From: Aigarchaeota archaeon
GTDB taxonomy: Archaea; Thermoproteota; Nitrososphaeria_A; Caldarchaeales; Wolframiiraptoraceae
Assembly (NCBI GenBank): GCA_025058515.1
Contig: JANXDW010000026.1
Location: 18,332 to 82,331, forward strand
Reading direction: 5' to 3'
DNA: 64,000 bases
In this document: positions 3,111-54,703 of the stretch, piece after piece
Layout of the letters: each line of letters opens with the position of its first letter
Numbering within the stretch: position 1 is the first letter of the stretch
Position numbers and translations under genes: made by a program
The notes under the pieces: generated by a model
The model's database searches: none
What the model was told of the DNA's origin: nothing
Seen by the model: only the letters and a program-made list of their open reading frames with translations

Positions 3111-4324
3111 AAGAGAGTTACTCTTTTCTGAAGTACCATTTCTTCAATCTTAGTTATATTCTCTAGTTCTTCTTTCACGATCTCGATTGCTTCTTTTACT
3201 ATACTCTGTTCATTTACATTATCTTCTGGAATGTATTGTAGAGATACTGCAAGAGGCTTATTTATTGGTCTACCTATCTGGCTTAAAAGTCTAACGTAAA
3301 TCTCTTTTATACCACCAATCTCTTGATATATTCTCTCAGACATGATCTTTGCTACCACATTATAGATCTTTCCTACATGAGATCTAGCATTCTTCCCAGC
3401 AGTAGCTTCTAAAGACATCTGCCTATTAGGTGTTATCAACCCATTAACTCTATTTCCTCTACCTGTATTTCCATCATCTCCACTCTCTGCAGACGTTCCC
3501 GTAACAGTCAAGTATACAGAGTTCTTACTAGGTATATCAGCTGTATTTACTTGTACGCTTACTTCTACATCTTTCTCTTCTGAAAGGATCTTGTAAGCTA
3601 ATTCTTCAACACTACTCTTTATCTGTTCTTTTACAGATAAGTAGTGGTCAAGGTCTGGTGTAAGAGAAGCTATTAAACTATCTGCTACTGTTATGAAGTA
3701 TTTATTCCCTATCCGTAGCCCCATAACTTTGCAATCTTCACCACTTTCAGGTATTCTCGATTTAAATTCTCTAGCGTTTATCATCCTCTCACTTTCATAA
3801 ACTATCTTCTCCAGCGGGGTGAGGGGTGAGTAACCAACTCCGAAAGAAGTATCATTAGCTAAAGGAGTCTCCTTATTTAGTTCAACCACAGTCTTCAAGT
3901 CAAGGCTTCCAGGTCTAATCTTCGTATCTATCACAACATGTTCTCCAGGATTTAAGAATCTGAAATTTTCTCGAATATATTCTTCAACTTCTCTTTTTAT
4001 CAATTCATGGTAAGGTATCTCTTCTTCTCCTACTTTTATCGTTGCTCTTCCAGCGATAAGGATATAGATAGGGGTCTCTACTACTCCACCTCCAAACCAT
4101 GTTCTAGAACTCCCACCCACCAATAGTCCTTTATCTAGATTGTGATGAAGCACCATCCCATATCTTTCTTTGTAATATCTTGATAATGCTCTACTTGCAG
4201 CTTCACATGCTGAATCTATGATATAGTCAGGGTGTCCAAGTCCTTTCCGTTCTACAAACTCTGTCTGCTGACGATGTACAGGCACTCTATCTAATCTCTC
4301 TACAATTATCTGAGATCTCCACAT
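3107..4324 (-). CDS. mat: Archaeal-type S-adenosylmethionine synthetase (methionine adenosyltransferase)
   Basis: 405 aa with an N-terminal GLGHPDYI motif and a Gly-rich TGTSAESGDDGNTGRGNR loop, both typical of archaeal MAT. Confidence 0.8.
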   Translation of the reverse strand: MWRSQIIVERLDRVPVHRQQTEFVERKGLGHPDYIIDSACEAASRALSRYYKERYGMVLHHNLDKGLLVGGSSRTWFGGGVVETPIYILIAGRATIKVGEEEIPYHELIKREVEEYIRENFRFLNPGEHVVIDTKIRPGSLDLKTVVELNKETPLANDTSFGVGYSPLTPLEKIVYESERMINAREFKSRIPESGEDCKVMGLRIGNKYFITVADSLIASLTPDLDHYLSVKEQIKSSVEELAYKILSEEKDVEVSVQVNTADIPSKNSVYLTVTGTSAESGDDGNTGRGNRVNGLITPNRQMSLEATAGKNARSHVGKIYNVVAKIMSERIYQEIGGIKEIYVRLLSQIGRPINKPLAVSLQYIPEDNVNEQSIVKEAIEIVKEELENITKIEEMVLQKRVTLF

Positions 4325-4553
4325 CTCAGAAGCCTAAAATTAGAATACTATAACACTATTTAACTCCTATTACACTATTCCTCAGACAATAAGTGGGTAG
4401 AGGTGAGGTATGAAGAAAACACTCCAAGTTATAGATTTTTACTCAATCATTATCTGAACTACGATATAGCGGGATTAAAGATTCTTGAAACGTCTTATAA
4501 CTTATAGTCTAATTTTGTATCTTTTCATCCAACCTCAACACTTAAGGAGTACC

Positions 4554-4817
4554 TTATTCACTCTCTCCAGGTATTAGCTGTATATACATTATGTTATTTC
4601 CTCTTATTAGTATTCTTGGGTACATGGCCTTCTTATTATTATCTTGATACTCTACCGCCTTCTCGATTACTAGGTTCATGTAGCTATCACACTCAACTAC
4701 AGTTCCTTCATACATTAAATCATTCTTTAAAGTTACTTTAATACTCCTATTGAGGTATTTTGTAATTAGTAGTAGAGGTTTTTTACCGGTCTCCATGGAA
4801 GACACCGAATTTTTCAA
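4554..4817 (-). CDS. Sm-like archaeal protein (SmAP/LSm)
   Basis: Sm1-like block KVTLKNDLMYEGTVVECDSYMNLVIEKAVE and Sm2-like block ILIRGNNIMYI. The true start may be the internal Met (METGKK...). Confidence 0.65.
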   Translation of the reverse strand: MKNSVSSMETGKKPLLLITKYLNRSIKVTLKNDLMYEGTVVECDSYMNLVIEKAVEYQDNNKKAMYPRILIRGNNIMYIQLIPGESE

Positions 4818-4977
4818 GAGTTCTTCTTTATTCTATACTTCTCAGATAGCTTTAAACATTTCGTTAGAAAAACTTGAAACCAAAGATCTAATTACGATCT
4901 ACTTTCCTACCCTATATTTAGTTAAGGAAGAGAATGATACATCGACCTGAGCAATTGATAGATTTACATATATGTAT

Positions 4978-5685
4978 CTATTTTAAGTTTAATACTTCTT
5001 GAAGTTTAGGTGGTATCCGAAGTTCTGAGAAGCATATCCCACAAACGAATAGGTCTCCTGAGATCTGCTGACTAAGTTTTAATGGAGCATTACATACAGG
5101 GCAAGACTTACTTGGAACATCTGGAGCAAATATTCTCTTACCACATGCTTCACATTTATTTGAACCAACTGGATTAAGCTTTCCACAATGTGGACATACA
5201 AGCTCTGAAGCTCTAGATACTACTTCTATAGTAGGTTCTTTCTCTACAGGTTTCTCCACCTTCTTTTCTACAGTAGGTTTCGCACCTGTCTCGATAATCT
5301 CCTCTATCTCTTTCTCTATCTCTTCAACAACGCTCTCTTTACTAAGTTCTACTGGACCGCTCACTCGTTCTGTAGTAAGTTTTTGAGGTTCTCTTCTAGG
5401 TGATGGTCTTCTAATAACTGGCGTAGGAGCTGGATACGCATAGCTTCCAGAAGTTATTGTTATACCTGTTCTTACAGCTCTAACATATAAGAGGAGCCCG
5501 ATACCACTTATTACTGCACCAATTATTATTGCATAAATTAAGTAGGAGAAGCCCATTACTGCTGTATCTAAGAATATTCTAATAGAGTTGTCTACGGGTA
5601 GAGATACGTAGTAAACTACTAGACCTAGGATCAATGCCACTCCAAGTAGACTTAAAGTCATGCCGATGATCATGAGCGGTGTCAT
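4978..5685 (-). CDS. Membrane-anchored protein with C-terminal tandem zinc ribbons (CPHCG..CEACG; CPVCN..CGIC)
   Basis: Two or three N-terminal TM helices, an acidic and Pro-rich linker, then four CxxC pairs. Its start overlaps the upstream Rio2 stop (ATGA). Confidence 0.4.
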   Translation of the reverse strand: MTPLMIIGMTLSLLGVALILGLVVYYVSLPVDNSIRIFLDTAVMGFSYLIYAIIIGAVISGIGLLLYVRAVRTGITITSGSYAYPAPTPVIRRPSPRREPQKLTTERVSGPVELSKESVVEEIEKEIEEIIETGAKPTVEKKVEKPVEKEPTIEVVSRASELVCPHCGKLNPVGSNKCEACGKRIFAPDVPSKSCPVCNAPLKLSQQISGDLFVCGICFSELRIPPKLQEVLNLK

Positions 5686-6617
5686 CCACTAACACCTTTT
5701 AATAGATTCTTATCTTTGGCCGTATTAAAAGTTTCCCCCAAGATCTTATCAATAAAATCTTGATATTCTCTCTGTATTATGTTTATCCTCCACCTCCGTC
5801 TAAAGTACTTTATCAAGTTAGTTAAATCTCTACTCAAATAAACATGAGCCATGGGATGATCTATCCTAACCCACTGAGGCCAATCAATAATAACTATCTC
5901 TTCAGATTGAGTAACTAAAATATTGTAGATGCTTAAATCGCTATGAACTATCCCCGAATTGTACATTCTGATAATGTTATCAAGAATCTTTGAGAATATC
6001 TTACTCGGATCTTTAATAAATTGAGCTGAAGAGATCTCTACTCCTCTAAATATCTTAGTTACTACTATGTGCTTTTCTCTAGCGATGGGCTCAGGTACAG
6101 CAACTCCTTCAGGGTGAAGGATTTTAAGAGCTTGGAATTCTCTTCTAGCAGCTTCCATTGATGCATGGAGATGTGAATGGATTAATGAGAGAGATGGTCT
6201 CTTCTTTCCATACCCTTTAAAACTTGTTCTACCTATCCTGAAAAATTTTAGAGCAATGTTCTCACCGCTAGGTGAGAGAGCCTCATAGACATCTGCTTCT
6301 TTTCCAACACCTAATGATTTCCCAATACTCTCTACTAAGTTCTTCTTGACCAGATTATTCAAAGCCAATAAATCTAATCCATTATAATTTAGTATGTAGC
6401 CTTTTGTTCTTCCTCTTGGAGACCATATAAGCTTATACAGGTTCAGTTTTTTAACTAGTTTTTCAATACTCGACTCATCGAGATTTGATTGCCTAACTAT
6501 TACTTCCTGAGGTACAACTTCATATTTTCTCATATTCTTCTCAAGTATCCTTAATATCTTGAAATGGTCTTCTTCTAGATCTTTAAATATCGTCTTGACG
6601 AGATAGTGTAGAGACAT
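5682..6617 (-). CDS. rio2: RIO-type serine kinase, Rio2-like (N-terminal wHTH plus RIO domain)
   Basis: Catalytic loop IVHSDLSIYNILV and metal-binding IIDWPQ. The 311-aa length with an N-terminal extension fits Rio2. Confidence 0.7.
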   Translation of the reverse strand: MSLHYLVKTIFKDLEEDHFKILRILEKNMRKYEVVPQEVIVRQSNLDESSIEKLVKKLNLYKLIWSPRGRTKGYILNYNGLDLLALNNLVKKNLVESIGKSLGVGKEADVYEALSPSGENIALKFFRIGRTSFKGYGKKRPSLSLIHSHLHASMEAARREFQALKILHPEGVAVPEPIAREKHIVVTKIFRGVEISSAQFIKDPSKIFSKILDNIIRMYNSGIVHSDLSIYNILVTQSEEIVIIDWPQWVRIDHPMAHVYLSRDLTNLIKYFRRRWRINIIQREYQDFIDKILGETFNTAKDKNLLKGVSG

Positions 6618-9600
6618 CTATACTTTCTTCACGCCTATCTTTATATTATCTCCATCTATCTCCCATTCTCTAACATATCCTTGAACTTCTCCTCGAATCT
6701 TTATATCAAGATGTGAGCATCTAGTCTCTTCTCTTATGAATTCTTTAACACTGTTTAGATTGTCGCTCCATTCTTCATCTGGAACAGATATATCCACAGA
6801 GATGTAGTCTAGTATGTGTAACCCCATATCTCTTCTCATGATCTGTATTCTTCTAATGACTTCTCTCCCAAGAGCTATTGCTACAAGTTCTTTTGTCTCT
6901 GTTACATCTAGATAGATCTTAGCAAATCTTCCATCTTCTCTTAATAAATTCTCTGGAAGCTTCTCTTCAAACTCTACTTCACCATTATTCAATCTAATAA
7001 TGCTTCCATCAGTAAGCATCAGTTCATAGAAACCTCTAGTTTCAAGAGCGTTCTTGAGATCTTCAACATCAACTGTAGATAGTCTTTCAACTATATCTTT
7101 CATCTTCTTTCCATATTTTGGTCCTAATATGCTGTAGACTGGTTTAACTAAATGTCTAGTCTCTGGATGATCGGCTCCAACACCTAGAATTTCCAATTCA
7201 AAAGTGTTTAACTGAATCTTGATAAATTCTCTTAGATCCTCAAAGGCTTTCTTGACTCTCATGGAGTTTGGAGAGAGTATGTATGCCTTAACTGGAGATC
7301 TTAATTTCTTTCCAGCTTTCTGACGAAGTGCTAATGCTTCCGTTAATGTTTGACGAGCTATCTCCATCATATCTTCTAGTTCATCGTTTATCCATTCTTC
7401 ATCAGCTTTTGGCCATCTAAGCATGTGCACACTCTCAGGGTCATCTTCTAGTTTAAGCTGTTGGTAGAGTTTCTCAGCTAGGTAAGGTATAATTGGAGAG
7501 ATTAATGTAACTAGTTTCTTGAGAGTATAGTAGAGGGTTGCGTAGACGCTTATCTTATCCCACGTCTGTTCTTCAATCCAGACTCTTCTCCTAATAGAGC
7601 GTACATACAATCTACTAAGGTCTTCTAATATGAATTCTCTTATTACCCTTGCAGCAGAATGTATCTCTAATTGCTCTAAAGACTTTGTAACAATCTTTAC
7701 TAAGTTATTTATTCTAGAGACTATCCATCTATCTTCTAGTCTAAGATGTTTCTCTACTTTTTGGAGTGTAAAATTATCTGGTTGGAATCGGTCTATCTCA
7801 AAGTAGGTGGATGCGAATGAGAATACATTCCATAGAATGTTGAGCTCTTGCATTATCTGTTCAACTTCTTTGTGAACGAAGTTCATGTTGTCCCATGGTG
7901 CCGACTTAGAGACCAGGTATAATCTTAGAGGGTCAGCTCCAAATCTTTCTATAGCTTCTATAGCCCACACTACGTTTCCCTTGCTCTTCGACATCTTCTT
8001 TCCTTCAGCATCCATTACGTGACCTTGGTTTAAGACTATTTTATACGGTGCCTCACCATAAAGTAGACATGATGTAAATAGTAGAGTGTAAAACCATCCT
8101 CTGGTCTGGTCTATTGCTTCTGTAATGAAATCGTATGGGAATAATTTTCTAAATAGTTCTCGATTTGATAATGCATCTATGCTCGCTGTATGAGCCATTC
8201 CAGAGTCAAGCCAAGTATCCATTACGAATACTTCTCTCATCATCAATTCACCACATCTAGAGCACTTGAACATAACCTGGTCAACCCAAGGTCTAAGTAG
8301 TCTTATCTGATCAGGCTTAACTTCTGCTTTAAGCAATTCTTCCTTACTTCCAACTACCTTCTTCTCTCCACATCTCCTACATTTCCAGATCGGTAACGGT
8401 GTACCCCAGATCTTCGTCCTACTAATACACCAATCTTCAGCATTCTCCAACCAATCTCCAAATCTATGATACCCAGCCCATGCAGGTTTCCATAATACTC
8501 TCTTATTCTCTTCAATCATTATCTTCTTTATTCTATCTACTTTTATGAACCATTGTCGACTTGAGAGGTATATTAGTGGTGAACCACATCTCCAGCAATG
8601 TGGATAGTTATGAAGTATCTTACCTTCCCAGATTAAGAGACCTCTATCTTTAAGGTATTCTACGATCTTCTTTCCTGCTTCACTGTATGTTAACCCAGAG
8701 TATTCTCCACCATCAATCGTAAAGTACCCATATGTAGATACTGGGTTGAAGATCGGTAGCCCAATCTTTACACCGACTTCAAAGTCTTCTGGACCATGGG
8801 CGGGAGCAGTATGAACACATCCAGTACCTTCCTCCATTGTCACGAATTCAGCGGCAATTACCGTGTGGGCTGGAGGACTGTGTTCTTTATGTCGAGGCAC
8901 CTTCTCGATTAATGGATGAATATACTTAAGTCCAGTGAGAGCTGAGCCTTTAAACCGTTCTAAGATCTCGAAAACTCTTACTCCAACTTCTTCAGTGAAT
9001 CTGTTAAGTAACTTCTCAGCTAAGATCCATTCTTCATTTCCTACTTTTATCTTGAGATAGTATTCATCTGGATGTACTGCTACTGCTTCATTCCCCGCTA
9101 GAGTCCAAGGGGTCGTAGTCCATATTAAAATGTATAGATTATTGCTACCCTCTATTGGAAACTTTACGTATATCGATGGATCTTCAACTTCTTCATATCC
9201 TTGAGCTACCTCATGACTGCTTAATGGTGTTTCACATCTTGGACAATATGGGACTACTTTAAAACTCTCAACTAAGTCGCCTTTCTCATAAGCTTGTTTT
9301 ATAAACCACCAAACATGCTCTATGTATCTCTCCCTTCTAGTTTCGTAAGCATTATCAAAGTCTAACCAGAGACCGAGCCTCTCCGATGCTTCTCTCCAAT
9401 GTTTTATATAGTAGTCTACCAACCTATCTGCTTCTTCAACAAACTTATCTAATCCATACAACTCTGCATCCCTCTTAGAGGTGAAGCCAAGTTTTTTCTC
9501 AACTTCTATCTCTGTAGGTAGTCCTAGGCAGTCCCATCCACCTCTCCTCCAAATATCTAGACCCTTCATTGTGTGAAATCTGAGAACGATGTCTTTGTAA

Positions 9601-10972: not shown

Positions 10973-11749
10973 TTATATTAGAGTGGCGAGTTCTCTAAAA
11001 GAAGTTTTCTTGAAACCCTTAATCTCTTCTCCTCTTGAAGTAACGTTATAGAGCTTTTTATCTGAAGTTGATGAATAGAGTTCTAGAAGAGTCTTACCGA
11101 TAGAGAGCTTCTTCTTTTTAATCTTAACCCATCTCTCGTCCATCATATTATAGTTTTTAGAGTACTGACCTATCTCTTCTCCAAAATCCATTCCCGCTAA
11201 CACTATCTTCTCGAAACCTAGTATATCAGATAAGAAGACTGCTCTATCTCCATCTGTGAATCCACCGAAGTTGTACATGTTTCCAAATGGTTCGCATTGT
11301 ACAGTCCCTAGTATTCTCCCATATAGACGTGGTAAAAGACTTCTTATCTTTATAATATTATCTCCATGAGCATGTACTATCATGGCAAGACATCTCCTCG
11401 AAGATTCTATCAATATATCATCACCTCCATCTAGATCTGTTACAATAAAATCCATTCTTAGTTTCTTGTCTAAGAATGCTCGTGAAGCTCCATCAGCTAC
11501 AAAGACGGTGACTTTATCAATTATATCTAACTCTATAAACTCCTGTATGTCTAATGTAAGCGATGGACCTGCACCGAAGATTATCGCTGTATCATTTTCC
11601 TTAATCATCTCTTTCAATTCATGAATTGTTAAAGCTCTACTAGCTAACATCTCATTCAATATATGAGCTGCTCTAAGATCTTCTTCAACTGAGTATCCCA
11701 TCTCTCTAACTATCTCAAGATATATCGGCTCCCACTCTTCCCATCTCAC
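10973..11749 (-). CDS. MptE-like protein (DUF115/PF01973 family; putative 6-hydroxymethyl-7,8-dihydropterin diphosphokinase)
   Basis: IIFGAGPSL Rossmann-like motif and about 250-aa size typical of the DUF115/MptE family. It sits next to an MptA-type GTP cyclohydrolase. Confidence 0.45.
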
Positions 11750-11760
11750 TAGATTACCAC

Positions 11761-12630
11761 CTACATATCTAGCAGTTTCTTCAGATCCCCTATCCTCACA
11801 TTAATTTTTGCTGCAATATCTTGAGAGTGCAAGCTTTCTTTACTCTGAACACATGCTAATATCTTCGACTCATCAGGGAGATCTGACCATTTATCAACAA
11901 TCTTTTTAACGATCTCTCTCAAGGTATCTTCTACGAATTTAGAATTCTTTAATGCATCAACCACTATTCTTGCTTCATCTATTCTCTTCAAGTAAGAATG
12001 TAGAGGAGAGCTGAAAGATGATTTAACTATCTCCAATAATTGTATGAGGTCAACCTCAAAGTCTCTGGGAACTTGGAGGAAGACTCTAGCTCTACTTCTC
12101 TGCATATGGGTTGTATCTATTCCATGGAAAGAGCTCTTAACTACTTCTCTTGCACATGGGCATGCGGTTAAACCTTCAACTTCAACTCCAACATACTTTA
12201 CGGTTGCTAGCTCTCTATGTGCTATTATTCTAACATGTATTTTAAAATGCTCATAAGACACCGATTTAGTAACAGGTGATTCCGATTTATAGTATGCGGG
12301 AGACTCTATATCAATGTAAACTTTACTTGAGTATGGATGAACACTTAGTAATCTCCTTGCAATCTCTTCTCCTACTTCTTCAAGTTTCACTTTCTCTCCT
12401 GAAAATTCTTTAACTATCTCTAAGATAACACCATATATTCTAGAAGCATGGATCCCTCGTTTATCTCGAGGCAAGTCTATAAATATGTTAAACTTTGGGA
12501 CGAGAATTATCTCTAACCCGTTAAGAATTATTCTACCAGTAGGTATCCTTATGTTTTTAAAACCTACCCGATTTATTGGGATCGGTACATCTGGCCTTAG
12601 ATCTTGAACATCTGGAATACTGCTCATCAA
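11761..12630 (-). CDS. mptA: GTP cyclohydrolase MptA/FolE2 family (type IB)
   Basis: N-terminal PDVQDLRPDVPIPINRVG and a conserved CPC motif (LTACPCAREV). Length 289 aa. Confidence 0.55.
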   Translation of the reverse strand: MMSSIPDVQDLRPDVPIPINRVGFKNIRIPTGRIILNGLEIILVPKFNIFIDLPRDKRGIHASRIYGVILEIVKEFSGEKVKLEEVGEEIARRLLSVHPYSSKVYIDIESPAYYKSESPVTKSVSYEHFKIHVRIIAHRELATVKYVGVEVEGLTACPCAREVVKSSFHGIDTTHMQRSRARVFLQVPRDFEVDLIQLLEIVKSSFSSPLHSYLKRIDEARIVVDALKNSKFVEDTLREIVKKIVDKWSDLPDESKILACVQSKESLHSQDIAAKINVRIGDLKKLLDM

Positions 12631-12719: not shown

Positions 12720-13646
12720 TTGAAGCTCAAGGTAGAAGCTGGTTCAAGAATCCATCTAGGATTCATCGATCCAATAGGTGTTCTCGGACGTAGATGGGGT
12801 TCAGTAGGATTATACTTAAATGAGCCAAAGCTATCTCTCACAATATCTAAATGTAATGATATTATTGTAGATGGTCCAAGATGGTTGAAGGATTTAGCAG
12901 AGAACATAGTTAAAAGACTTGGAATAGATGGGTTAATGATTGAGTGCTCTAACCATATCCCTAGACACGTAGGATTAGGCTCTGGAACTCAGACGATCCT
13001 CTCAATAGGGTTAGCAGTTTCTAAGATCTATAAGCTTGATTTAACACTTAGAGATATAGCTTTGATGTTTAATAGATGTAGAAAGTCTGGTGCAGGATTC
13101 TGGCTATTCCAAGTAGGCGGCATAGTCATAGATGGAGGAAATACATCTGAGGAAGAAATTCCACCATTACTAGCTAGGTTCGACCTCCCCGAGGAGTGGA
13201 TGATTCTTCTAGCTATTCCCTTAAATGAAGGTTTAGGTCTTCATGGAAGAATTGAAGAAGAGAAATTTAAGATGCTTAATGCGGCAGATCCTAAAGAAGC
13301 TTCATTGATAATCTTGATGAAGTTACTACCATCTATAGTGCAGAGGAATTTTGAGAGATTCTCAGAGGCTGTAGAAGAACTTGACCTAGTAACATCTAGA
13401 TTCTTTGAAACAGCTCAATCGGGTAGATATTTTAAAAGTTCTTCTAAAGTTGTTGAATTTTTGAAAAACATAGGAGTGAGGGGGGTGGGGCAAAGCTCTT
13501 GGGGTCCTACGATATATGGATTTTTAGAAAGCTCTGAAGTTGAAGAAGTGGGTAAGAAGCTTAAAAACATAGAGGGTTTTAGATTCATCTTTACAACTCC
13601 ACGTAATAAGGGTGCAGAGATCTCTCAACTCCAATCTAGTTTTTAG
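12720..13646 (+). CDS. GHMP-kinase-fold enzyme, beta-ribofuranosylaminobenzene 5'-phosphate (beta-RFAP) synthase-like
   Basis: N-terminal SRIHLGFIDPIG resembles the RIH(M/F)GLID start of beta-RFAP synthases. GHMP motif HVGLGSGTQ. Context is MptA and MptE-like genes. Confidence 0.5.
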   Translation: MKLKVEAGSRIHLGFIDPIGVLGRRWGSVGLYLNEPKLSLTISKCNDIIVDGPRWLKDLAENIVKRLGIDGLMIECSNHIPRHVGLGSGTQTILSIGLAVSKIYKLDLTLRDIALMFNRCRKSGAGFWLFQVGGIVIDGGNTSEEEIPPLLARFDLPEEWMILLAIPLNEGLGLHGRIEEEKFKMLNAADPKEASLIILMKLLPSIVQRNFERFSEAVEELDLVTSRFFETAQSGRYFKSSSKVVEFLKNIGVRGVGQSSWGPTIYGFLESSEVEEVGKKLKNIEGFRFIFTTPRNKGAEISQLQSSF

Positions 13647-22333: not shown

Positions 22334-22903
22334 GTGGATAGATTGAGCAAGATAAAGAAAGCTTTAAACTTTCTAGTCTTCATCACCTTATTCATACTCT
22401 TAGGATTATTGGTCATAGCTGCTTTATACAATCTTTCAGGAGAGGTCTTCCCACTACTAGTTGTAAAAAGTGGAAGTATGGAGCCAGTTCTAAGTAGAGG
22501 GGATATAATATTGATAGAGAAAGTAAGTCCTGATGAAATTAGAGCAGATATCGTGAATGGGGATATTATAGTTTTCTATAAACCTGGAACAAATATACTC
22601 ATAGTTCATAGAGCTATAAGAAAAGTTGATGGAGGTTTTATAACTAAAGGAGATGCGAATACTGGTTCAGACTATTTTTCACCTGTACCTCCAGAGAACA
22701 TCGTCGGTAGGTGGACGGGTATGAAGATACCTTCATGGTCTGGGCTAGGATATTTATCGCTATTCTTAAGAGGAGAGCTCTATCCACCTTATGGTAAGAT
22801 AGTCTTGATAGTGCTCCTAGTTATAAACGTGGTTTTCATAGTGAAAGATATTCTTTCAAGAGGGAAGAAGAACGCTCAGGAAGAGAAGAAAGTAGAGTCT
22901 TAA
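22334..22903 (+). CDS. Signal peptidase I, archaeal/Sec11 type
   Basis: N-terminal TM, catalytic SGSMEP box, and a GDAN-like box (KGDANTGSD). Confidence 0.7.
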   Translation: MDRLSKIKKALNFLVFITLFILLGLLVIAALYNLSGEVFPLLVVKSGSMEPVLSRGDIILIEKVSPDEIRADIVNGDIIVFYKPGTNILIVHRAIRKVDGGFITKGDANTGSDYFSPVPPENIVGRWTGMKIPSWSGLGYLSLFLRGELYPPYGKIVLIVLLVINVVFIVKDILSRGKKNAQEEKKVES

Positions 22904-23507
22904 GATATTCTTCAAATATCTTTCCAGACGCAGTCTTCTTAACTATATCTATACTGTATGAGATAGACTTTAACAATCTTTCAATACTGATCCCTTGGTC
23001 AAGATAAGGCTCAATCCTACTCATATTTACTGCACACTCTACTAACGCATATACAGCTCTACTATATGGTTCGATTATTCCTACACCTTCATAAACTACT
23101 ACAACTTTACATATGAAATCTCTTCTAGAAATCTTATCAATTACTTCTTCTACATTAAACTCGATGTAAGCCTCCATATTCTTTAATCTTGGAACATCAA
23201 CTATCTCCGCATCCTCGATCTCTTCATGTAAGTATCTTTCTTTATCTTTAGCTAGGTACTTGATAAATAAGATAGGGTTACGAGTTACATTTACAACACC
23301 TCGTCCACTCTCTATGAGATTACTATGTGTCTTTGTATCTTTATAGACGGAGAGAAGGAAGCTAGAGAGATTATCAAGAAACTTTATACCCATTGGTGCT
23401 GCATTTATCTCTCCATCTCTAGATTTTGTTGTTAGTATAACTTCATAGATGAGGTCTGGGGAAACTGTTGGCAGAATATCTCTTATAGACTTAGAGATCT
23501 TCTTCAT
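22836..23507 (-). CDS. Hypothetical protein, DUF447-like (FMN-binding split-barrel?), H4MPT-associated family
   Basis: 223 aa. The family assignment comes from remembered DUF447 features and adjacency to a CitG-like gene, and was not verified. Confidence 0.3.
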   Translation of the reverse strand: MKKISKSIRDILPTVSPDLIYEVILTTKSRDGEINAAPMGIKFLDNLSSFLLSVYKDTKTHSNLIESGRGVVNVTRNPILFIKYLAKDKERYLHEEIEDAEIVDVPRLKNMEAYIEFNVEEVIDKISRRDFICKVVVVYEGVGIIEPYSRAVYALVECAVNMSRIEPYLDQGISIERLLKSISYSIDIVKKTASGKIFEEYLKTLLSSLPERSSSLLKEYLSL

Positions 23508-23583
23508 CTTCCTTGATTAAAGATTTATACCTCTTATAGAAATATTTTTACAAGATACATTTTACTGGAAAAGTCTAAATATG

Positions 23584-24492
23584 CTAGAAAGTGTATCCTG
23601 ATAATAAGACTACTGCTATAGATGAAGCCAGTAAGTCGGCGGTTGCACCAGGTCTTGTTCTCCAGCTTTTCCTCATTGAGAGATCTAGTTCTCTCAACAT
23701 TTTAAGTCCTTCCCTATTGTTTACTCCTCCTAATTCTAGAATCTTAGATGCCATGTAGGATACTCTTTCTGCTAATGGTTTTCCACCTCTCTTTAAGATG
23801 TGTGTATCTAGATATTTTGAGAGAAGTTGGAGGAAGGTTTGAGCTAAAGCATTTCTCATAGACATCTTCTCTATATTCTTTATTAACTGTGAAGCTCCAT
23901 ACATAGTCCTTGAATACAATCTAACCCATTCATGTGCTACAACCTCTATATTTACAAAAGGTTTAAGAGCATCTACAGGTTTCAATCTTAGTCTCTTTAT
24001 CTCATCGTATGTTTCATCACTGAAAATATCCATGAATGGTATTCTACGTAGACCTCTAGGTCCAACTATCTTGAGAGCATTAAATATATGTATTGTATCT
24101 TTCCAATCCATTCTCGATAGAATTATCTTTAAGTTCTTCCTAAGACCTCCCATACTTAAAGGTTTAGATCTAGATAGTGCTGATGCACAAGCTAGAGGAG
24201 AGATTAAAAGTAGTGCTCCTAGATGGGTATTGCCTCCTCTCTGAGATGTGATCATGTTTCGAGCTCCTCTATAGACTACTTCTCCAAGACCTCTACCAAG
24301 TTTCTTGTAACCAATCTCTGCAGACTCTCTAAAACATGAGTAAAGTGAAGAAGAGGATATTAAGAAGTGCTCAAATAAAGTTTCATGAAAATCGCTGTAT
24401 CTATCTACTAATCCAGGTTTAGGTGTTGTAGCTACTTCTAGTAAGAGAGCTGAAACACATCTAGAAGCTATCCAATCAAAATCTATATCCAA
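23584..24492 (-). CDS. Triphosphoribosyl-dephospho-CoA synthase (CitG/MdcB)-like protein
   Basis: N-terminal ATTPKPGLVDR motif, diagnostic of the CitG family. 302 aa. Confidence 0.65.
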   Translation of the reverse strand: MDIDFDWIASRCVSALLLEVATTPKPGLVDRYSDFHETLFEHFLISSSSLYSCFRESAEIGYKKLGRGLGEVVYRGARNMITSQRGGNTHLGALLLISPLACASALSRSKPLSMGGLRKNLKIILSRMDWKDTIHIFNALKIVGPRGLRRIPFMDIFSDETYDEIKRLRLKPVDALKPFVNIEVVAHEWVRLYSRTMYGASQLIKNIEKMSMRNALAQTFLQLLSKYLDTHILKRGGKPLAERVSYMASKILELGGVNNREGLKMLRELDLSMRKSWRTRPGATADLLASSIAVVLLSGYTF

Positions 24493-24494
24493 CT

Positions 24495-24914
24495 CTATTT
24501 CACCAATCTATCTAGAATATTTGATAGAGACTCAACAGCGGTGAGCCCGATGCTCTTAAACTTCTTCAACTCATTCCAGTAAGTTAAGTCTACCTTCTCT
24601 ACTAAACCTTCTAGAAACTTTTTTAGATAGATAGTTTTCTTACTCCCTTCTTCATCGATATCTAGTAGGAGGACTACATGATCAACACCCATCGACCTTA
24701 GCTTCTGAACGAGATCTCTAGGAGATCTATATATGATGATCTCTCCTTTAACCCCTATTCCTCTCAGAGCTTCAAAATCTCTCTTTCCTTCAACTATTAT
24801 TGGAGAACCATCTTCAGATTCTTCAATAAGTTTTCTAATCCATTCTTTAAGTTCTTCATACTCTTTAAGATTTCTACATCTCTTCTTTATTCTCGATCCA
24901 CCAATTAAAAATAT
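24495..24914 (-). CDS. Small Toprim-domain protein (COG1658-like); start codon uncertain
   Basis: Toprim Glu box IIVEGKRDFEAL and DxD box LLLDIDEEG. The ORF is open from a stop at 24921-24923 and has no in-frame ATG/GTG/TTG upstream of the E box. Confidence 0.5.
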   Translation of the reverse strand: MFLIGGSRIKKRCRNLKEYEELKEWIRKLIEESEDGSPIIVEGKRDFEALRGIGVKGEIIIYRSPRDLVQKLRSMGVDHVVLLLDIDEEGSKKTIYLKKFLEGLVEKVDLTYWNELKKFKSIGLTAVESLSNILDRLVK

Positions 24915-25153
24915 CTTATACTAATCTTTATTTTTAGCTTTCTCAAATTCTATGAAGGATTTAAGGGAGAATATAATCTAGAGGTTTAACATCTAGGAAT
25001 AAGTGAGTATTGAAATGAGTGTTTTTATCATTTTTTGACTTCTTATTCAAGTGGAGAAGAGCTTTAGTACATCTATTGGTTATACCAGTGTATTACAAAA
25101 TTATTTTTACATCTACATTTTCTAGTAACCCTAGAGTTGGAGGTGAGAGATAA

Positions 25154-26736: not shown

Positions 26737-27699
26737 GTGAATCGTAGAGAAGAGAAATTAGTTGTTATAGCTTTAGGAGGCAACGCTCTATTAAGAAGAG
26801 GTCAGAATGGAACTTTTGAAGAACAGTATGAGAACGTAAAGCAGACATGTAAGATCTTAGCTGACCTTATTGAGAATGGATATAAGCTAGCAATAACACA
26901 TGGTAATGGTCCACAGGTAGGAGCTACTATACTTAGGCATGACGCTGGTTTCAGAGTTTATGGAGTTCCTCCATTCCCCATGGATGTATGCGGGGCTGAG
27001 ACACAAGGTTTCATAGGATATATGATCCAGCAAGCATTAACAAACGAGTTACTAATGAGAGGAATCAAGAAGAACGTCATCACAATTATTACAAGAGTAG
27101 TTGTAGATAAAAATGACCCAGATTTTTCTAATCCAAGTAAACCAGTTGGAGCATTTTACACAGAGAAGGAGATGATGGAGATCAAGAAGATTCATCCTGA
27201 ATACATCTTTAAAGAAGATAAAGCTAGAGGAGGTTGGAGAAGGGTTGTCCCATCTCCTGATCCGAAATACTTGGTGGAGATGCCTGGGATAAAAGCGTTA
27301 GTAGATGCAGGGTACATAGTGATCTCAAGTGGTGGAGGAGGAATCCCAGTAATAGAAGAGAATTCTGAGATGAGAGGTGTTGAAGCAGTTATAGATAAAG
27401 ACTTAGCTGGAGAAAGACTCGCAACATCTCTAGGTGCAAGTAAATTCATAATTCTAACGGATGTTGATGGAATATACGTAGACTACGATAAGTCTACCCG
27501 AAGGAAGATAGACGTTATAAGAGTTGAAGAATTGAAGAAGCTTTACGATGAGGGGCATTTCCCACCAGGTAGCATGGGTCCAAAAGTTAAAGCAGCTATA
27601 AGATTCATTGAATCTGGAGGAGATGAAGCTATAATTGCTGACTTAAAAGACTTGATGAATGCGATAAGAGGTAAGGCGGGAACACATATAATCCGATAA
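26737..27699 (+). CDS. arcC: Carbamate kinase
   Basis: N-terminal KLVVIALGGNALL, amino-acid kinase fold, 320 aa. A GTG start with a TTTAAAT element about 25 nt upstream suggests a leaderless mRNA. Confidence 0.8.
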   Translation: MNRREEKLVVIALGGNALLRRGQNGTFEEQYENVKQTCKILADLIENGYKLAITHGNGPQVGATILRHDAGFRVYGVPPFPMDVCGAETQGFIGYMIQQALTNELLMRGIKKNVITIITRVVVDKNDPDFSNPSKPVGAFYTEKEMMEIKKIHPEYIFKEDKARGGWRRVVPSPDPKYLVEMPGIKALVDAGYIVISSGGGGIPVIEENSEMRGVEAVIDKDLAGERLATSLGASKFIILTDVDGIYVDYDKSTRRKIDVIRVEELKKLYDEGHFPPGSMGPKVKAAIRFIESGGDEAIIADLKDLMNAIRGKAGTHIIR

Positions 27700-37987: not shown

Positions 37988-39190
37988 CTATAAATATTTA
38001 TCTCTTGATAAATTCCTATTGAGAAAACAGGAGGGGTCAGAAGAGAGCGGATCTCCAGAGTATGCGTATGATCTTGCACGGCAGCCTCCACATACTTCTC
38101 TTAAATTACATTCTCTACAAAATCCTTTCAAGTTTCTTCTATCTCTAAAAATATTGAATACCTCTCCTCTCCATATTTCTTCCGCATTCTTTTCTAAGAG
38201 ATTTCCAGTATTAATTGGTAGGAAGGGGCATGGCCATACATCTCCATTTGGTTTAATATAGAACATTCCCCTTCCAGCTATACATCCTTTAAAGATTAGT
38301 GAGGCGAGCCTCGGATTTAAATTCTTCTTTAGAGCTAAGTATGCGAAGAATTCAGGTAGGCCTACAGGTATTATGATAGGCTTAACCGTGCTCTGGATAT
38401 TTTCTAAAGTTTTTATTACGTAATAAAATTCACTTATGGATAATGCTTCATTGATGAGCTGTTCTCCTCTTCCAGAAGGCATTAACTGATATAGTAGTGT
38501 TACATGTGCTTCAAGCTTATCTGAAATCTCCAGTAATTGCTTAAGCTGGTTTAAGTTTCTCCTCGATAACGTTATATTTATCTGAGTGTACATTTTTTCT
38601 CTGCGAGCATTTATTATTCCTTTAATGGCTGATCGCAATGCCCCCCTGACCCCTCTATAATCATCATGCTGGTCGGGAGAGGTAAAGTCTATGCTTACCG
38701 CAACGCCTTCAACACCATTCTCAACCATCTTCCTAACCACATCTCTAGTGATTAGTACACCGTTAGTAGCAATTACTATGCTAAACCCCATATTTCGAGC
38801 ATACCTGACAAGGTCGAGTAGATCATTCCTTATAAGAGGTTCTCCACCTGTAAAGACGAGCATACGGAAATCATCAACATGTGCAAGGTTCTCTATAATC
38901 TTCTTTGCTTCTTCTGTACGTAATTCTCTATCCCCTTTTTCGCCACCTCTTGCATGGCAGTGGACGCATCTTAAATTGCAGTTAGATGTGACTTCGTAAA
39001 CTGGGTGTACTGGGTATCCGAAGCATCCTAGACCAATGGCCCCAGCTGCAACGTTTAAGAGAGTCTTAATGTATCTGAGCCAGTATCCTAAACCTCTCCA
39101 TCCCGTTATCTCTTTAAACGTTGTAAGTGTCATTGCTTGTCGCATTATAAGTGAGGGCGGAATATATGGAGGTAAAACAAACCTATTCAT
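37988..39190 (-). CDS. Radical SAM enzyme with C-terminal SPASM domain (AhbD/PqqE-like architecture)
   Basis: CNLRCVHCHARG (Cx3Cx2C) preceded by VYEVTS, TIM-barrel core, and a C-terminal Cys-rich tail CPFLP...CRECNLREVCGGCRARS. Confidence 0.7.
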   Translation of the reverse strand: MNRFVLPPYIPPSLIMRQAMTLTTFKEITGWRGLGYWLRYIKTLLNVAAGAIGLGCFGYPVHPVYEVTSNCNLRCVHCHARGGEKGDRELRTEEAKKIIENLAHVDDFRMLVFTGGEPLIRNDLLDLVRYARNMGFSIVIATNGVLITRDVVRKMVENGVEGVAVSIDFTSPDQHDDYRGVRGALRSAIKGIINARREKMYTQINITLSRRNLNQLKQLLEISDKLEAHVTLLYQLMPSGRGEQLINEALSISEFYYVIKTLENIQSTVKPIIIPVGLPEFFAYLALKKNLNPRLASLIFKGCIAGRGMFYIKPNGDVWPCPFLPINTGNLLEKNAEEIWRGEVFNIFRDRRNLKGFCRECNLREVCGGCRARSYAYSGDPLSSDPSCFLNRNLSRDKYL

Positions 39191-40399: not shown

Positions 40400-40520
40400 T
40401 GCGGGGGGTGGGATTTGAACCCACGAACCCCTACGGGATTCCCCACTTTAATTCAGGGGTTCTCATCTCTTATTTGAGAACCTGAACCCTGCGCCGTTGA
40501 CCAGGCTTGGCTACCCCCGC
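40400..40520 (-). tRNA. tRNA-Leu (anticodon CAG) with two predicted introns
   Basis: Minus-strand sequence GCGGGGG-TA-GCCAAGCCTGGTCAACGGC-G-CAGGG-TTCAGG[about 21-nt insert]CCCTG-[about 15-nt insert]-TCCCGTAGGGGTTC-GTGGGTTCAAATCCCAC-CCCCCGC-A. The acceptor and T arms are perfect, the D arm is Leu-type, the variable arm is long, and the discriminator is A. Confidence 0.8.
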
Positions 40521-47171: not shown

Positions 47172-48233
47172 TTGAAGATTGTGAAGATAATCCAGATCGA
47201 GGTCTCTTCAAGATGTAACGCAGACTGCTTGATGTGTCCTAAATCTAGTTATAAAGATCTATGGAGTTTTGGAGATATGGATCTTGAAGATTATACTAAG
47301 ATAAGTAGTTGTTTCGATGAATGCGATATCGTATGGTTGCAAGGATGGGGGGAGCCATTGCTCTCTAAAAATATTTACGAGATGGTTAGATTGGCTGGGA
47401 GAAGAGATACTACAGTAGGTCTTACAACAAATGCTATGCTATTAAATAGTGAACGATCGAGGAGATTGATAGAGAATGGTGTTAAAGTCTTATCTATATC
47501 GATTGCAGGTGGAACGAGAGAGACTCATGAGAGTATTAGGAGGGGGACCAGCTTTAATAAAATTATTGAGAATGTTAAAGCATTGACACAGTTGAGGAGA
47601 AATGTAAATGCAAGAGATTTAAAGGTGATCTTCACATTCTTGAGAATTAAACAGAATATTGCTGAGCTTCCAAGAGTTGTCGAGCTTGCATCTGAGCTAG
47701 ATGTAGACCAAGTTATCGGAACGAACATAGACTATATACCGACTAAAGAACACTACGATATGAAGATCTTTTCAGAGGGTAAAGCTTCTAAAGAGTATTT
47801 AGAGATAATAAGATCGAGTGAAGAAAGAGCAAGAGAGTTAGGGGTCTCTATCTTCAACTATCCTATAGAGATGGAGGAAGTCATAGTATGCCCTGAAGAC
47901 CCTACTAGAGGATTATTCATCTCTCACGATGGAAGCGTCTCACCATGTGTTTACTTAAATGTACCTTTAAGATCTCATACAATTCCAAGATATTTCAAGA
48001 ATACTCAATACGATGTTCCTAAACTAATTTACGGGAACATAAAGGTAGAGAGGTTAGAAGAGATTTGGAGAAAAAAAGAATATATGGAATTTAGGGATGT
48101 TTATAATGAGAGAGTAAAGTCTTCGAAACCTACTGTGAGCTTCATTCAATCTTTACTTGAAGTTAGAGAGGTACATAGGATTCCCCAGATACCTGAACCG
48201 TGCAGAACTTGTTATAAAGCTTATGGAGTTTAA
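47172..48233 (+). CDS. Radical SAM enzyme with C-terminal Cys-containing (twitch/SPASM-like) extension
   Basis: CNADCLMCPK (Cx3Cx2C), GGEPLL-like WGEPLL, and C-terminal Cys residues (CPEDP...SPCVY...CRTC). A TTG or GTG start. Confidence 0.55.
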   Translation: MKIVKIIQIEVSSRCNADCLMCPKSSYKDLWSFGDMDLEDYTKISSCFDECDIVWLQGWGEPLLSKNIYEMVRLAGRRDTTVGLTTNAMLLNSERSRRLIENGVKVLSISIAGGTRETHESIRRGTSFNKIIENVKALTQLRRNVNARDLKVIFTFLRIKQNIAELPRVVELASELDVDQVIGTNIDYIPTKEHYDMKIFSEGKASKEYLEIIRSSEERARELGVSIFNYPIEMEEVIVCPEDPTRGLFISHDGSVSPCVYLNVPLRSHTIPRYFKNTQYDVPKLIYGNIKVERLEEIWRKKEYMEFRDVYNERVKSSKPTVSFIQSLLEVREVHRIPQIPEPCRTCYKAYGV

Positions 48234-48966: not shown

Positions 48967-50040
48967 CTATCTCCATTTAAATTGTGTAGTAGTTCTAAAT
49001 GTTGGTAGAGAGAAGATGAAATCATCAATATGCTTATCTGTGAAAGGTATCTCTGTTAAGGTGAAGAATCTCTCCCACCCAATCCTCTTTATCCAATCTC
49101 CTATCCTCTCACCCTTCTTAGCGTTCTTAATCCATGCATCTATAACTTTTTTAGCTGCTTGAACACATTCTGGCCATCTAGGAGGATTATTTGGAAGATA
49201 TGGTATTGCAAGTCTAGAGAATTCTGGAGGACCTCCAGCTACAGCGTTCCCTCCAACCCACATAGATAAGCAGTCATATTTTGGATTGTGTATAAACATC
49301 CCTGGGCAGACTGTGTAGCAGTTTCCACAATACATGCACCTCTCCTCATTAACTATTACTGATTTCTTTTCTGGTGCAGGTCTGATAGCTGCTGTAGGAC
49401 AGCTGGCGACAAGAGTAGGTATCTCGCAAAGCCTACTAACTATATCATCATTAACTACTGGAGGCTTTCTATGCATTCCAACAAATGCAAGGTCTGAACA
49501 GTGTACTGCTCCACACATATTTAAGCAGCATGCAATAGCTATCTTTAGTTTACCTGGTAGATCATCTCTAACAAAGTAATCGTATAGTTCATCGTAGAGA
49601 GCCTTGGCAAGTCCTGGAGCATCTATTATGGCCGTATGGCAGTGAACCCATCCTTGAGTATGTATTATAGCTTTCAAGGATCGACCAGTTCCTCCCACAG
49701 GCCAACCTCTCTCTCTTAATTCTCTTAGTAATCCATCCAGTTTATTCTTATCGGTAACTATGAACTCTACATTATGTCTACTCGTAAACTTCACGTATCC
49801 ATCAGAATATTTATCAGCGATATCGCATAGCTCTCTAACGAAGTAGACGCTAACTATCTTTGGTATCGCTGCTCTAACCATGTAGACTTCATCACCATTC
49901 ATAGAGACGTGTTTTATTATACCTGGAGCAACATATTCGTGGTATCTCCATTTACCGTAATTCTTCATTAATACTGGGTGGACCATCTCTCTATAATGCG
50001 GAGGACCAATATCTGTTATGTACTTCTTCTCTCCAGACAT
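48967..50040 (-). CDS. dsrB: Dissimilatory sulfite reductase beta subunit
   Basis: N-terminal TDIGPPHYREMVHPVLMKNYGKWRYHE, siroheme/Fe-S Cys residues, and an inserted ferredoxin domain (CMYCGNCYTVCP). Confidence 0.85.
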   Translation of the reverse strand: MSGEKKYITDIGPPHYREMVHPVLMKNYGKWRYHEYVAPGIIKHVSMNGDEVYMVRAAIPKIVSVYFVRELCDIADKYSDGYVKFTSRHNVEFIVTDKNKLDGLLRELRERGWPVGGTGRSLKAIIHTQGWVHCHTAIIDAPGLAKALYDELYDYFVRDDLPGKLKIAIACCLNMCGAVHCSDLAFVGMHRKPPVVNDDIVSRLCEIPTLVASCPTAAIRPAPEKKSVIVNEERCMYCGNCYTVCPGMFIHNPKYDCLSMWVGGNAVAGGPPEFSRLAIPYLPNNPPRWPECVQAAKKVIDAWIKNAKKGERIGDWIKRIGWERFFTLTEIPFTDKHIDDFIFSLPTFRTTTQFKWR

Positions 50041-50044
50041 CTTC

Positions 50045-51223
50045 TTACTTCACCTCCTCAAGTTCTTCAGGACTCCAGAAGTAGTATGGATTAGCTCTAG
50101 GAGCATAAACCATCTGAGGAGCCGGTGGTTGACCGATAGCTTTCAAGAAATTCCTCATACCAACCCTATATACTAATTCTCCTACCCTCTCTCTAGTTTT
50201 AGCATTCTCATCCCACCAGTCGAGAATCTTTCTAGTCAACTCCTTTAATTCTCTATATGGTTTGTCAGCCTTCATAAATGGTACGATAACCCATCCGAGA
50301 AATGCTCCCTGCAGTATAGTTGCCTTCCCTCCTAAGAGTATTGATACACCTCTATCATCTCCTGGGAGAATGGCCTTGGGTAAAGCTGATAGACATTTCA
50401 TACATCTTGTACAATCTTCTGGTATGACTCTGAGTTCTTTACCATCCCATTCAAGAGCTTGTGGTGGACATCTAGCAGCTACAGCCGCTATATTCACACC
50501 CTTCTTAGCATATTCTCTTACAGCCTCTTGATCTATCTTTATAGAATCTCTCCATGTTCCAATTATTGCTAAATCTGCACGGGCTAGTGCTGCTACACAA
50601 TCGTTAGGACATCCAGCTATCTTAATCTTGAATTTGTATGGGAATCTAGGTCTATGTATCTCATCTTGAAGTTCCATGGTTAACTCATGGTAGATGTCTA
50701 GAGTATCGATACATGACCATTGGCAGAAAGCTGGTCCACCACAACAACTGAGAGTTCTCACATCACCTCCAGAGCCTCCTAGATCGAATCCTATTGAAAT
50801 CAAGTCTTCAAAACAAGGTTGGAGGCTCGCTGTCTGAGCTCCTAGTAAGATTATGTCTCCTGTAGAACCGTGTAGATTTATGAATCCGGAGCCATGCTTC
50901 TCCCATACATCACAAAGCTTTCTTAATGCTTTGGTTGAGTAAAACCACCCAGCGGGCTGTGCTACTCTAAGTGTATGAACTTCAGGGGTTTGCATAACTT
51001 CAGGTGGAAGATCACTATATCTGCCGATTACGCCTCCACCATACCCTCTTACACCAACTATACCTCCATGCTTCCAGTGGGTTACTCTCTCTACATAAGA
51101 TCTCTCCAATTGTAGTAAGATATTCTTCGAGTAAGGTTTTACCGCCGCCATCCGCTTCATCTCTGTTACGAAACTAGGCCATCGACCTTTCTCTAATTCA
51201 TCTAAGAGAGGTGTCTCAGACAT
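50045..51223 (-). CDS. dsrA: Dissimilatory sulfite reductase alpha subunit
   Basis: N-terminal [16 protein letters not shown], nitrite/sulfite reductase Cys residues, and a ferredoxin-like CTRCMKC. Confidence 0.85.
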
Positions 51224-51474
51224 TTTCTACTCGACTACATTTATTTCGTTAGTCGTATATATTCTTTCTTATTGAAAAATTTCTTTCTAATTGAAAAATC
51301 CTTCCATCTAAAGAATAACGTAGTTATAGAAGAAGAGCAATCACATATATAGATTGAAGGTAAAAACCACACCACAAATGTAAATTATCAATCTAGTCCA
51401 TGAATAGTATAATGGGATTTAATATTTTCTCTTCTCTCAGTTTACCTATCTCAAATCATCCATAATCATCTATC

Positions 51475-54511: not shown

Positions 54512-54703
54512 TGATTCTCTCCTCTATACTATGGTTTTAATTCATCTATATTAATAGTCTTAGTTCTTCTCCTCTCTTGATAAGAGAAGTCTATACGATT
54601 AGATTGAAGAATGTGAGGAAAACTAATGTCTACTTACTTATTCTCTACTTCAACATTTTATAAAATTATTGTTCATCTAAGAGTTTAAGCTGAATCTTTT
54701 TAA

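Follow-up and report, generated by a model that had tools for sequence, protein, structure and literature searches.

Tetrahydromethanopterin (H4MPT) and its relatives serve as carriers of one-carbon units in methanogenesis, in anaerobic methane and alkane oxidation and in bacterial methylotrophy, and modified forms occur in many non-methanogenic archaea. Methanopterin has a 5-phospho-alpha-D-ribofuranosyl-(1-5)-ribitol linkage, and the first committed step of the arylamine branch of its synthesis is that of MptG, the beta-ribofuranosylaminobenzene 5'-phosphate (beta-RFAP) synthase. To our knowledge, several of the side-chain steps have been without an enzyme since an outline of the pathway emerged in the 1990s; after the coupling by a dihydropteroate synthase-like (DHPS-like) enzyme, we know of none assigned to four of them, namely the reduction of the ribofuranosyl to a ribityl group, a dephosphorylation, the addition of alpha-ribose-5-phosphate to the ribitol 5-OH, and the coupling of hydroxyglutarate. 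With ATP as donor, CitG forms an alpha(1''-2') ribosyl linkage and sets adenine free. Here we analysed a CitG-like gene and a neighbouring gene of the DUF447 family in a 64,000-nt stretch of DNA from a hot-spring archaeon of the Aigarchaeota (Caldarchaeales; GenBank assembly GCA_025058515.1, contig JANXDW010000026.1, positions 18,332 to 82,331), referred to below as the window. Both families have reportedly been listed for about 20 years among H4MPT-linked genes of unknown function.

Genomic comparison found that both families are physically tied to MptG, to a DHPS-like gene and to MptA, MptD and MptE, and not to citrate or malonate metabolism. Because of these fusions and adjacencies, we place the pair in the pterin branch, where the two proteins are very probably side-chain enzymes of the biosynthesis of a methanopterin-type cofactor. 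The explanation that we favour adds a reaction for each of them, with DUF447 as a reductase dependent on flavin mononucleotide (FMN) and the CitG-like protein as an ATP-dependent (triphospho)ribosyl transferase; to this whole, pathway and both steps together, we give a probability of about 55%, and each of the two step assignments is put forward tentatively. The pterin-pathway interpretation of the initial annotation of this DNA is therefore upheld. That annotation also held the biochemical roles of both families to be unassigned, and the literature searched, which covered few subscription journals, gave no functional assignment of either DUF447 or a methanopterin-linked CitG.

The CitG-like protein of the window matched the Pfam CitG profile (PF01874) with 196.4 bits against a cut-off of 27 (E = 1e-57), residues 10-294 being aligned to positions 2-283 of the 284 in the profile, and its open reading frame (ORF) contains EVATTPKPGLVDRYS. 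The CitG-family motif that had been claimed for this 302-residue protein is therefore there, in a protein that fits the family from end to end. The profile matches of the window ORFs are well above anything that chance would give. The protein stayed below the equivalog cut-offs of the three NCBIfam models concerned, with 93.7 versus 280 bits for NF002315, 90.1 versus 282.35 for TIGR03132 and 63.6 versus 272.3 for TIGR03125. An identical (100%) protein in NCBI, from an 'Aigarchaeota archaeon' metagenome-assembled genome (MAG), is named 'triphosphoribosyl-dephospho-CoA synthase', and the nearest species-level relatives, from Candidatus Geocrenenecus and Caldarchaeales, have about 70% identity. 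The CitG-like and DUF447 genes lie on the same strand, separated by a spacer of 76 nt in which a TATA-like TATAAAT is located about 20 nt 5' of the DUF447 ATG.

The CitG-like gene is directly preceded, 2 nt before its start, by a gene for a conserved small Toprim-like protein (NCBIfam PRK04017 family; match to PDB 1T6T with E = 1e-7). The conserved N-terminal half of this ORF, including IIVEGKRD, is in frame and intact, and no ATG, GTG or TTG was found before codon 76. Close relatives have canonical starts; the gene likely has an ATA or ATT start, or its start codon was lost.

The CitG-like alignment was scanned on one genome per GTDB species, giving 435 confirmed stretches, of which the best 80 (55 archaeal and 25 bacterial) were kept; the survey was anchored on CitG and not on DUF447, and is biased to relatives with QxGGNTHLG or PKPGL. 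In a midpoint-rooted neighbour-joining tree, drawn without bootstrap values, the 55 archaeal sequences and that of the window formed one clade, apart from the 25 bacterial sequences. Twenty-four alignment columns conserved at 85% or more have the same residue in the 56 archaeal and the 25 bacterial sequences. Residues common to the archaeal CitG-like proteins and canonical CitG include E19, P24-K25-P26-G27-L28-V29, R31 and G86/N88/T89/H90/G92, and further E188, D229, G255-G256 and P281/A285/D286, so that the catalytic core is intact. Six columns are conserved yet different between archaea and bacteria (Q/T84, L/K91, L/F95, L/S96, A/R186 and Y/F193). This pattern suggests that the archaeal protein may have kept the chemistry of CitG with a different acceptor, and the loss of two basic residues, K91 and R186, would fit an acceptor without the diphosphate of CoA. 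A strongly acidic, haloarchaeon-like CitG homologue (P0079) with PKPGNVDR was also seen; the cofactor attributed to haloarchaea is tetrahydrofolate, not methanopterin (PMC8305020).

The locus of Centipeda periodontii, a bacterial control that came from the same genome scan, has the order CitE-CitF-CitG-citrate transporter (CitMHS). Such a citrate lyase-type arrangement was absent from the archaeal loci inspected by Pfam, including the flanks of the loci numbered L001-L008. The initial annotation had looked to citrate or malonate lyase genes nearby as the mark of a canonical role; a Pfam scan of all ORFs of at least 90 amino acids found no CitD, CitE, CitF, CitX or Mdc gene in the 64-kb window, and the Pfam-annotated flanks of L001-L008 held none either. 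We conclude from the low NCBIfam scores, the separate clade and the lack of a CitE-CitF context that the protein is not a canonical CitG. Archaeal proteins named 'triphosphoribosyl-dephospho-CoA synthase' whose hosts have neither citrate lyase nor malonate decarboxylase are probably pterin-cofactor enzymes, which would make this name a systematic mis-annotation.

Stop-to-stop ORFs of all 20-kb loci were searched in six frames with hidden Markov models built in this study. A DUF447 gene adjoins the CitG-like gene on the same strand in 21 of the 55 archaeal species loci, with gaps of -78 to +308 nt, and is located immediately downstream of it in all DUF447-adjacent archaeal loci except one from a Nezhaarchaeales MAG (L062). 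A DHPS-like Pterin_bind gene is directly adjacent to the CitG-like gene in 6 of the 55, and also in L006. Neither neighbour was found at any of the 25 bacterial CitG loci. Twelve of the 21 DUF447-adjacent loci, and the window, have MptG at a distance of up to 10 kb, and in Terraquivivens, Pelearchaeum and the window the genes MptG-MptA-MptE are found 4-10 kb from the CitG-DUF447 pair. On the tree, DUF447 adjacency occurs in a Geocrenenecus/Terraquivivens/Benthortus clade, separately in Pelearchaeum, and with reversed order in Nezhaarchaeales, and DHPS-like adjacency in Calditenuaceae and one Bathyarchaeia genome, giving at least three and at least two separate lineages, respectively. The association of CitG-like genes with pterin genes has arisen or been retained in several lineages, and the tight pairing of CitG with DUF447 is a trait of archaea (Aigarchaeota genera and Nezhaarchaeales).

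The most informative single locus is L062, where a putative compact methanopterin cluster of about 4.6 kb (positions 4287-8869) can be read from the domain matches. Genes for a Flavoprotein+4Fe-4S (DmrX-like) protein, MptD (PF04038), MptE and MptA are on one strand, and DUF447 and the CitG-like gene diverge from them on the opposite strand. In another archaeal locus, L058, there is an overlap between a DUF6513/Pterin_bind/DUF4346 gene and the beginning of the CitG-like gene. The cluster of L062 is followed by a 346-aa ORF without a Pfam match, which may be a further gene of the pathway.

The DUF447 family is small, with 361 representative clusters at E<=1e-3 among 1.84 billion proteins. One of its top 150 members, a 517-aa DUF447_N-DUF447_C-GHMP fusion, has a beta-RFAP synthase match. 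On a bacterial contig of 6.9 Mb (L009), a DHPS-like DUF6513/Pterin_bind/DUF4346 gene, this DUF447::MptG fusion, MfnB and serine hydroxymethyltransferase follow each other in that order. A homology search with the fusion found the DUF447::MptG architecture in over 100 separate clusters at 90% identity, with lengths of 500-545 aa; the named ones all belong to Planctomycetota (Pirellulales, Planctomycetaceae), and the cultured strains Tautonia rosea and Tautonia sp. JC769 are among them. Pterin_bind-DUF4346 stands ahead of DUF447 in two proteins (P0328 and P0336), and a PabB-like chorismate-binding domain ahead of DUF447-MptG in a third (P0339), each from a single contig where a read-through gene call is possible. 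Four DUF447 loci were looked up for their context, two of them on contigs shorter than 1 kb. An unfused equivalent was found in L090, where MptA points away from DUF447 and MptG, which follow each other on the other side, with overlapping genes. In L091 (1076-3725), the next genes after DUF447 encode an F420_ligase (CofE-like) and a RimK-type ATP-grasp protein, which suggests a cofactor-tailoring cluster, possibly for the glutamylation of a pterin or F420 cofactor.

The 223-aa ORF of the window, which had been annotated as DUF447-like with a Pfam search proposed as the check, scored above the gathering cut-offs of both the N- and the C-terminal model: 79.5 bits for PF04289 (cut-off 24, E = 2e-22) and 32.2 bits for PF20766 (cut-off 24.8). 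A weak match to Pfam Flavin_Reduct (22.7 bits) was below its 27-bit cut-off. This protein, too, is 100% identical to one from an 'Aigarchaeota archaeon' MAG in NCBI, there named 'DUF447 family protein'. Its AlphaFold2 model (predicted local distance difference test 94.4, predicted template modelling score 0.90) was compared with the PDB using Foldseek, and the best matches were DUF447 structures (E of 4e-13 to 2e-10, target-normalised TM-score of 0.59-0.78), namely 3B5M of R. baltica, MTH_863 (2PTF), MM1853 (2NR4) and 2IML of A. fulgidus. Three of the four (2PTF, 2NR4 and 2IML) are FMN complexes, and the next-best matches were flavin reductases of two-component monooxygenases and flavoredoxins. 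The window protein is accordingly modelled as a predicted FMN-binding split-barrel. The source organisms of all four solved DUF447 proteins are known to use H4MPT-type cofactors.

The 3' end of the DUF447 gene overlaps a convergent archaeal signal peptidase I gene (Table 1). This overlap is kept in most related Aigarchaeota loci, as are a downstream 906-aa Ig-like/CarboxypepD_reg protein, YjbQ and DNA ligase. The idea that DUF447 might be MfnF was dropped as unsupported: it came from the report that the MfnF homologue of methylotrophs is Orf9, which is not an orf named as DUF447 (PMC8141765), and none of the 150 DUF447 members matched an Mfn-named NCBIfam model, the window DUF447 having no NCBIfam match of any kind.

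The MptA/MptE/beta-RFAP synthase trio that had been placed about 9 kb from the pair was recovered with Pfam and NCBIfam models, with 9.2 kb measured from the end of MptG to DUF447 (Table 1). The MptG homologue is above the subfamily cut-off and below the equivalog cut-off. Other neighbours are housekeeping or unrelated genes, including DNA ligase, aconitase, FtsZ, carbamate kinase, a MoxR ATPase, and sulfite reductase of the dissimilatory (Dsr) type with respiratory genes. The AA-kinase was considered as MfnE/Orf21 and rejected, since its match identifies it as carbamate kinase.

Table 1. Features of the window (positions counted from its first nucleotide)
Feature	Position	Strand	Basis or remark
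MptE-like 6-hydroxymethylpterin diphosphokinase	10973-11749	-	PF01973, 89.8 bits (cut-off 34.6)
GTP cyclohydrolase MptA	11761-12630	-	TIGR00294, 243 bits (equivalog cut-off 220); Pfam GCHY-1
Beta-RFAP synthase (MptG) family protein	12720-13646	+	TIGR00144, 152 bits (cut-off 113.5); NF040726, 171 bits (equivalog cut-off 328)
DUF447 protein, 223 aa	22836-23507	-	DUF447_N PF04289 and DUF447_C PF20766
Overlap of DUF447 (-) and signal peptidase I (+)	22836-22903		68 nt
CitG-like protein, 302 aa	23584-24492	-	Pfam CitG PF01874 full-length; TTG start
Toprim-like small protein	24498-24920	-	
AA-kinase (carbamate kinase)	26737-27699		TIGR00746, 416 bits (cut-off 358)
Radical SAM/SPASM protein	37988-39190	-	
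tRNA match	40400-40520	-	Rfam; spans 121 nt
Radical SAM/SPASM protein	47172-48233	+	
Dsr-type module	48967-53549	-	
Dsr-type module	53777-56787		
Dsr-type module	57908-58228	+	
Dsr-type module	58990-62994	+	

The Dsr-type module comprises two NIR_SIR proteins (DsrAB-like), CCG/Fer4 and Nitrate_red_gam proteins (DsrK/DsrM-like) and DsrC, together with sirohaem-type genes (TP_methylase, NAD_binding_7, CobB/CobQ-like), a second DsrMK-like pair and cytochrome b, and is noteworthy in an Aigarchaeote. The length of the Rfam tRNA match suggests that this tRNA contains an intron; ARAGORN found no tRNA in the window. One of the two radical SAM/SPASM genes adjoins a UbiA prenyltransferase gene.

In the reactions we propose, DUF447 would act right after MptG and the DHPS-like coupling enzyme, and would reductively open the beta-ribofuranosyl ring of pterin-RFAP (or of RFAP itself) to give the 1-(4-aminophenyl)-1-deoxyribitol moiety. 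An FMN protein that fusions place between a DHPS-like domain and MptG is the natural candidate for this ring reduction. The CitG-like enzyme would displace adenine from ATP with inversion and form an alpha-glycosidic bond, the acceptor being the ribitol 5-OH of the pterin intermediate instead of dephospho-CoA, and would in this way install the alpha-ribofuranosyl 5-(tri)phosphate unit of methanopterin. A CitG-type enzyme fits this ribose addition because the product is alpha-configured, and an inverting transferase using phosphoribosyl pyrophosphate (PRPP) would yield the beta anomer. The triphosphate might then drive hydroxyglutarate coupling, by analogy with CitX, or be hydrolysed. In its most specific form, with the CitG-like clade as the missing alpha-ribosyl-phosphate enzyme that uses ATP and not PRPP, a triphosphate that drives a CitX-like coupling, and DUF447 as the missing reductase, the proposal is possible but on balance unlikely.

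Several points weigh against this explanation. Because the window MptG homologue scores below the equivalog cut-off, the cofactor could be other than authentic H4MPT; a methanopterin-like modified folate is probably what the organism makes, and this need not be H4MPT itself. The step suggested for DUF447 draws on FMN binding and fusion position, which other redox roles would fit equally well, and work with cell extracts was reportedly interpreted with PRPP, not ATP, as donor of the second ribose. Both assignments are sequence-derived proposals. In 28 of the 55 archaeal loci, mostly of Caldarchaeum and Thermoplasmata, no DUF447 or DHPS-like gene is found less than 10 kb from the CitG-like gene, and the same holds for Alkanophaga. 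A single monophyletic Aigarchaeota clade contributes much of the adjacency signal, which makes the counts non-independent events. Finally, the methylotroph CitG-like gene orf7 adjoins orf5, the gene of the methylofuran glutamate ligase MyfB, which allows a role in a furan cofactor.

Among the alternatives, the one that survives best keeps the pathway and changes the steps, with DUF447 as an alternative dihydromethanopterin reductase or a partner in electron transfer or flavin delivery, and the CitG-like protein as a kinase- or nucleotidyl-type activator for hydroxyglutarate coupling, or as a PRPP-using enzyme. The context indeed identifies a pathway and not a step, and in the extract studies the donor of the second ribose was reportedly PRPP. 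The known dihydromethanopterin reductases DmrX, DmrB and AfpA are, moreover, FMN-dependent (PMC6193120), and the DUF447 family binds FMN. However, a DmrX-like flavoprotein and DUF447 occur together in the Nezhaarchaeales cluster L062, which argues against simple redundancy; DUF447 is fused to enzymes that act early on the side chain (MptG and the DHPS-like domain) and not to any of the terminal reduction; and the fully kept core motifs of CitG favour a glycosyl transfer of the CitG type. We consider these other steps unlikely, though they are the most serious competitor of the reductase and ribosyl transferase proposed here.

A second alternative places the pair in the biosynthesis of a cofactor of the methanofuran or methylofuran type, outside the pterin branch. 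The CitG-like gene orf7 of methylotrophs is reported in mch-orf5-orf7-fae clusters (PMC3615186, PMC11533326), and several of the 'archaeal-like' genes, Orf5 (MyfB), OrfY (MyfA), Orf9 (~MfnF), Orf17, Orf21 (~MfnE) and Orf22 (~MfnB), have been reassigned to methylofuran biosynthesis, so that membership of such a cluster no longer implies H4MPT (PMC8141765). The initial annotation had linked DUF447-paired CitG homologues to H4MPT in methylotrophs; orf7 does stand among the methanopterin-linked one-carbon genes there, but no pairing with DUF447 is reported (PMC3615186, PMC11533326). MfnB also comes after the DUF447::MptG fusion on the bacterial contig L009. Against a furan role, the fusion partners MptG, DHPS-like domain and PabB belong to the pterin/arylamine branch, the loci L062 and L058 hold only pterin genes, and no Mfn homologue was found in the window, where the one AA-kinase considered is a carbamate kinase. 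As far as we know, methanofuran and methylofuran contain no ribose, which leaves a ribosyl transferase no obvious step. A furan cofactor is therefore improbable as the product of the pair.

It could also be that the adjacency is inherited synteny and that the CitG-like and DUF447 proteins are functionally unrelated. Most of the DUF447-adjacent loci are indeed in one Aigarchaeota clade with wider synteny (FtsZ, the Toprim-like gene, signal peptidase and a large Ig-like protein). Yet Pelearchaeum also has the two genes together, Nezhaarchaeales have them in the opposite order and L008 has them between other flanking genes, and elsewhere either gene has a link of its own to pterin genes, which makes mere synteny very improbable. 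Weakest of all is a canonical CitG/MdcB role, in which the 302-aa protein would make 2'-(5''-triphosphoribosyl)-3'-dephospho-CoA for the acyl carrier protein of citrate lyase or malonate decarboxylase with DUF447 unrelated: the full-length Pfam match, the complete core motifs and the NCBI name speak for it, but the missing Cit and Mdc genes, the bit scores of only 94, 90 and 64 where the equivalog models require 280, 282 and 272, the separate clade, the replaced K91 and R186, and a recurrent DUF447/pterin-gene adjacency missing from canonical CitG loci leave it hardly any probability.

The locus is no new kind of system; both genes are in public databases and a link with H4MPT was suspected earlier. 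What is added here is an archaeal CitG-like clade cleanly separated from canonical CitG, a quantification of the CitG-like/DUF447 and CitG-like/DHPS-like adjacencies, the scale of the DUF447::MptG fusion, and two explicit, testable reactions. It is the comparative evidence (DUF447::MptG fusions, CitG-like/DHPS-like adjacency and the Nezhaarchaeales Mpt cluster) that turns a vague link with H4MPT into two specific reactions. If the CitG-like enzyme uses ATP and DUF447 is the reductase, two of about four remaining enzyme gaps of H4MPT synthesis would be filled, and the donor chemistry in pathway databases would have to be revised. A specialist would not be surprised by this, yet it gives a useful handle on the open steps of a major cofactor pathway.

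Compared with known systems, the window CitG-like protein is closest to CitG/MdcB (EC 2.4.2.52), with which it shares the Pfam family over its full length and the motifs E19, PKPGLVxR, GxNTHxG, E188, D229, GG and PxxxAD. It likely also has the same chemistry, with ATP as ribosyl-triphosphate donor, adenine released and an alpha-glycosidic product. It differs in reaching only about one third of the equivalog cut-offs, in its separate clade and in the lack of citrate lyase, malonate decarboxylase or CitX partners, and the acceptor, which is dephospho-CoA for CitG/MdcB, would be the ribitol of a pterin-arylamine. Methylotroph Orf7 is, like the window protein, a CitG-family protein among methanopterin-linked one-carbon genes (PMC3615186, PMC11533326), but its gene has MyfB and fae as neighbours and not DUF447.

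The DUF447 protein of the window shares family and fold with the structural-genomics proteins 2PTF, 2NR4, 2IML and 3B5M, at 19-24% identity in structural alignments, and no reaction is assigned to any of these. With flavin reductase-like split-barrel enzymes (HpaC, PheA2, SgcE6 and flavoredoxin) it has the core FMN-binding beta-barrel in common; unlike them, it has a C-terminal helical domain of its own (PF20766), and its context is cofactor biosynthesis, whereas theirs is that of two-component monooxygenases. DmrX, DmrB and AfpA resemble it in FMN dependence, as proposed for DUF447, and in acting in the same pathway, but presumably belong to a different family, Pfam Flavoprotein (PF02441). 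The coexistence of a DmrX-like Flavoprotein+Fer4 gene with DUF447 in L062 shows that the two are not simply interchangeable.

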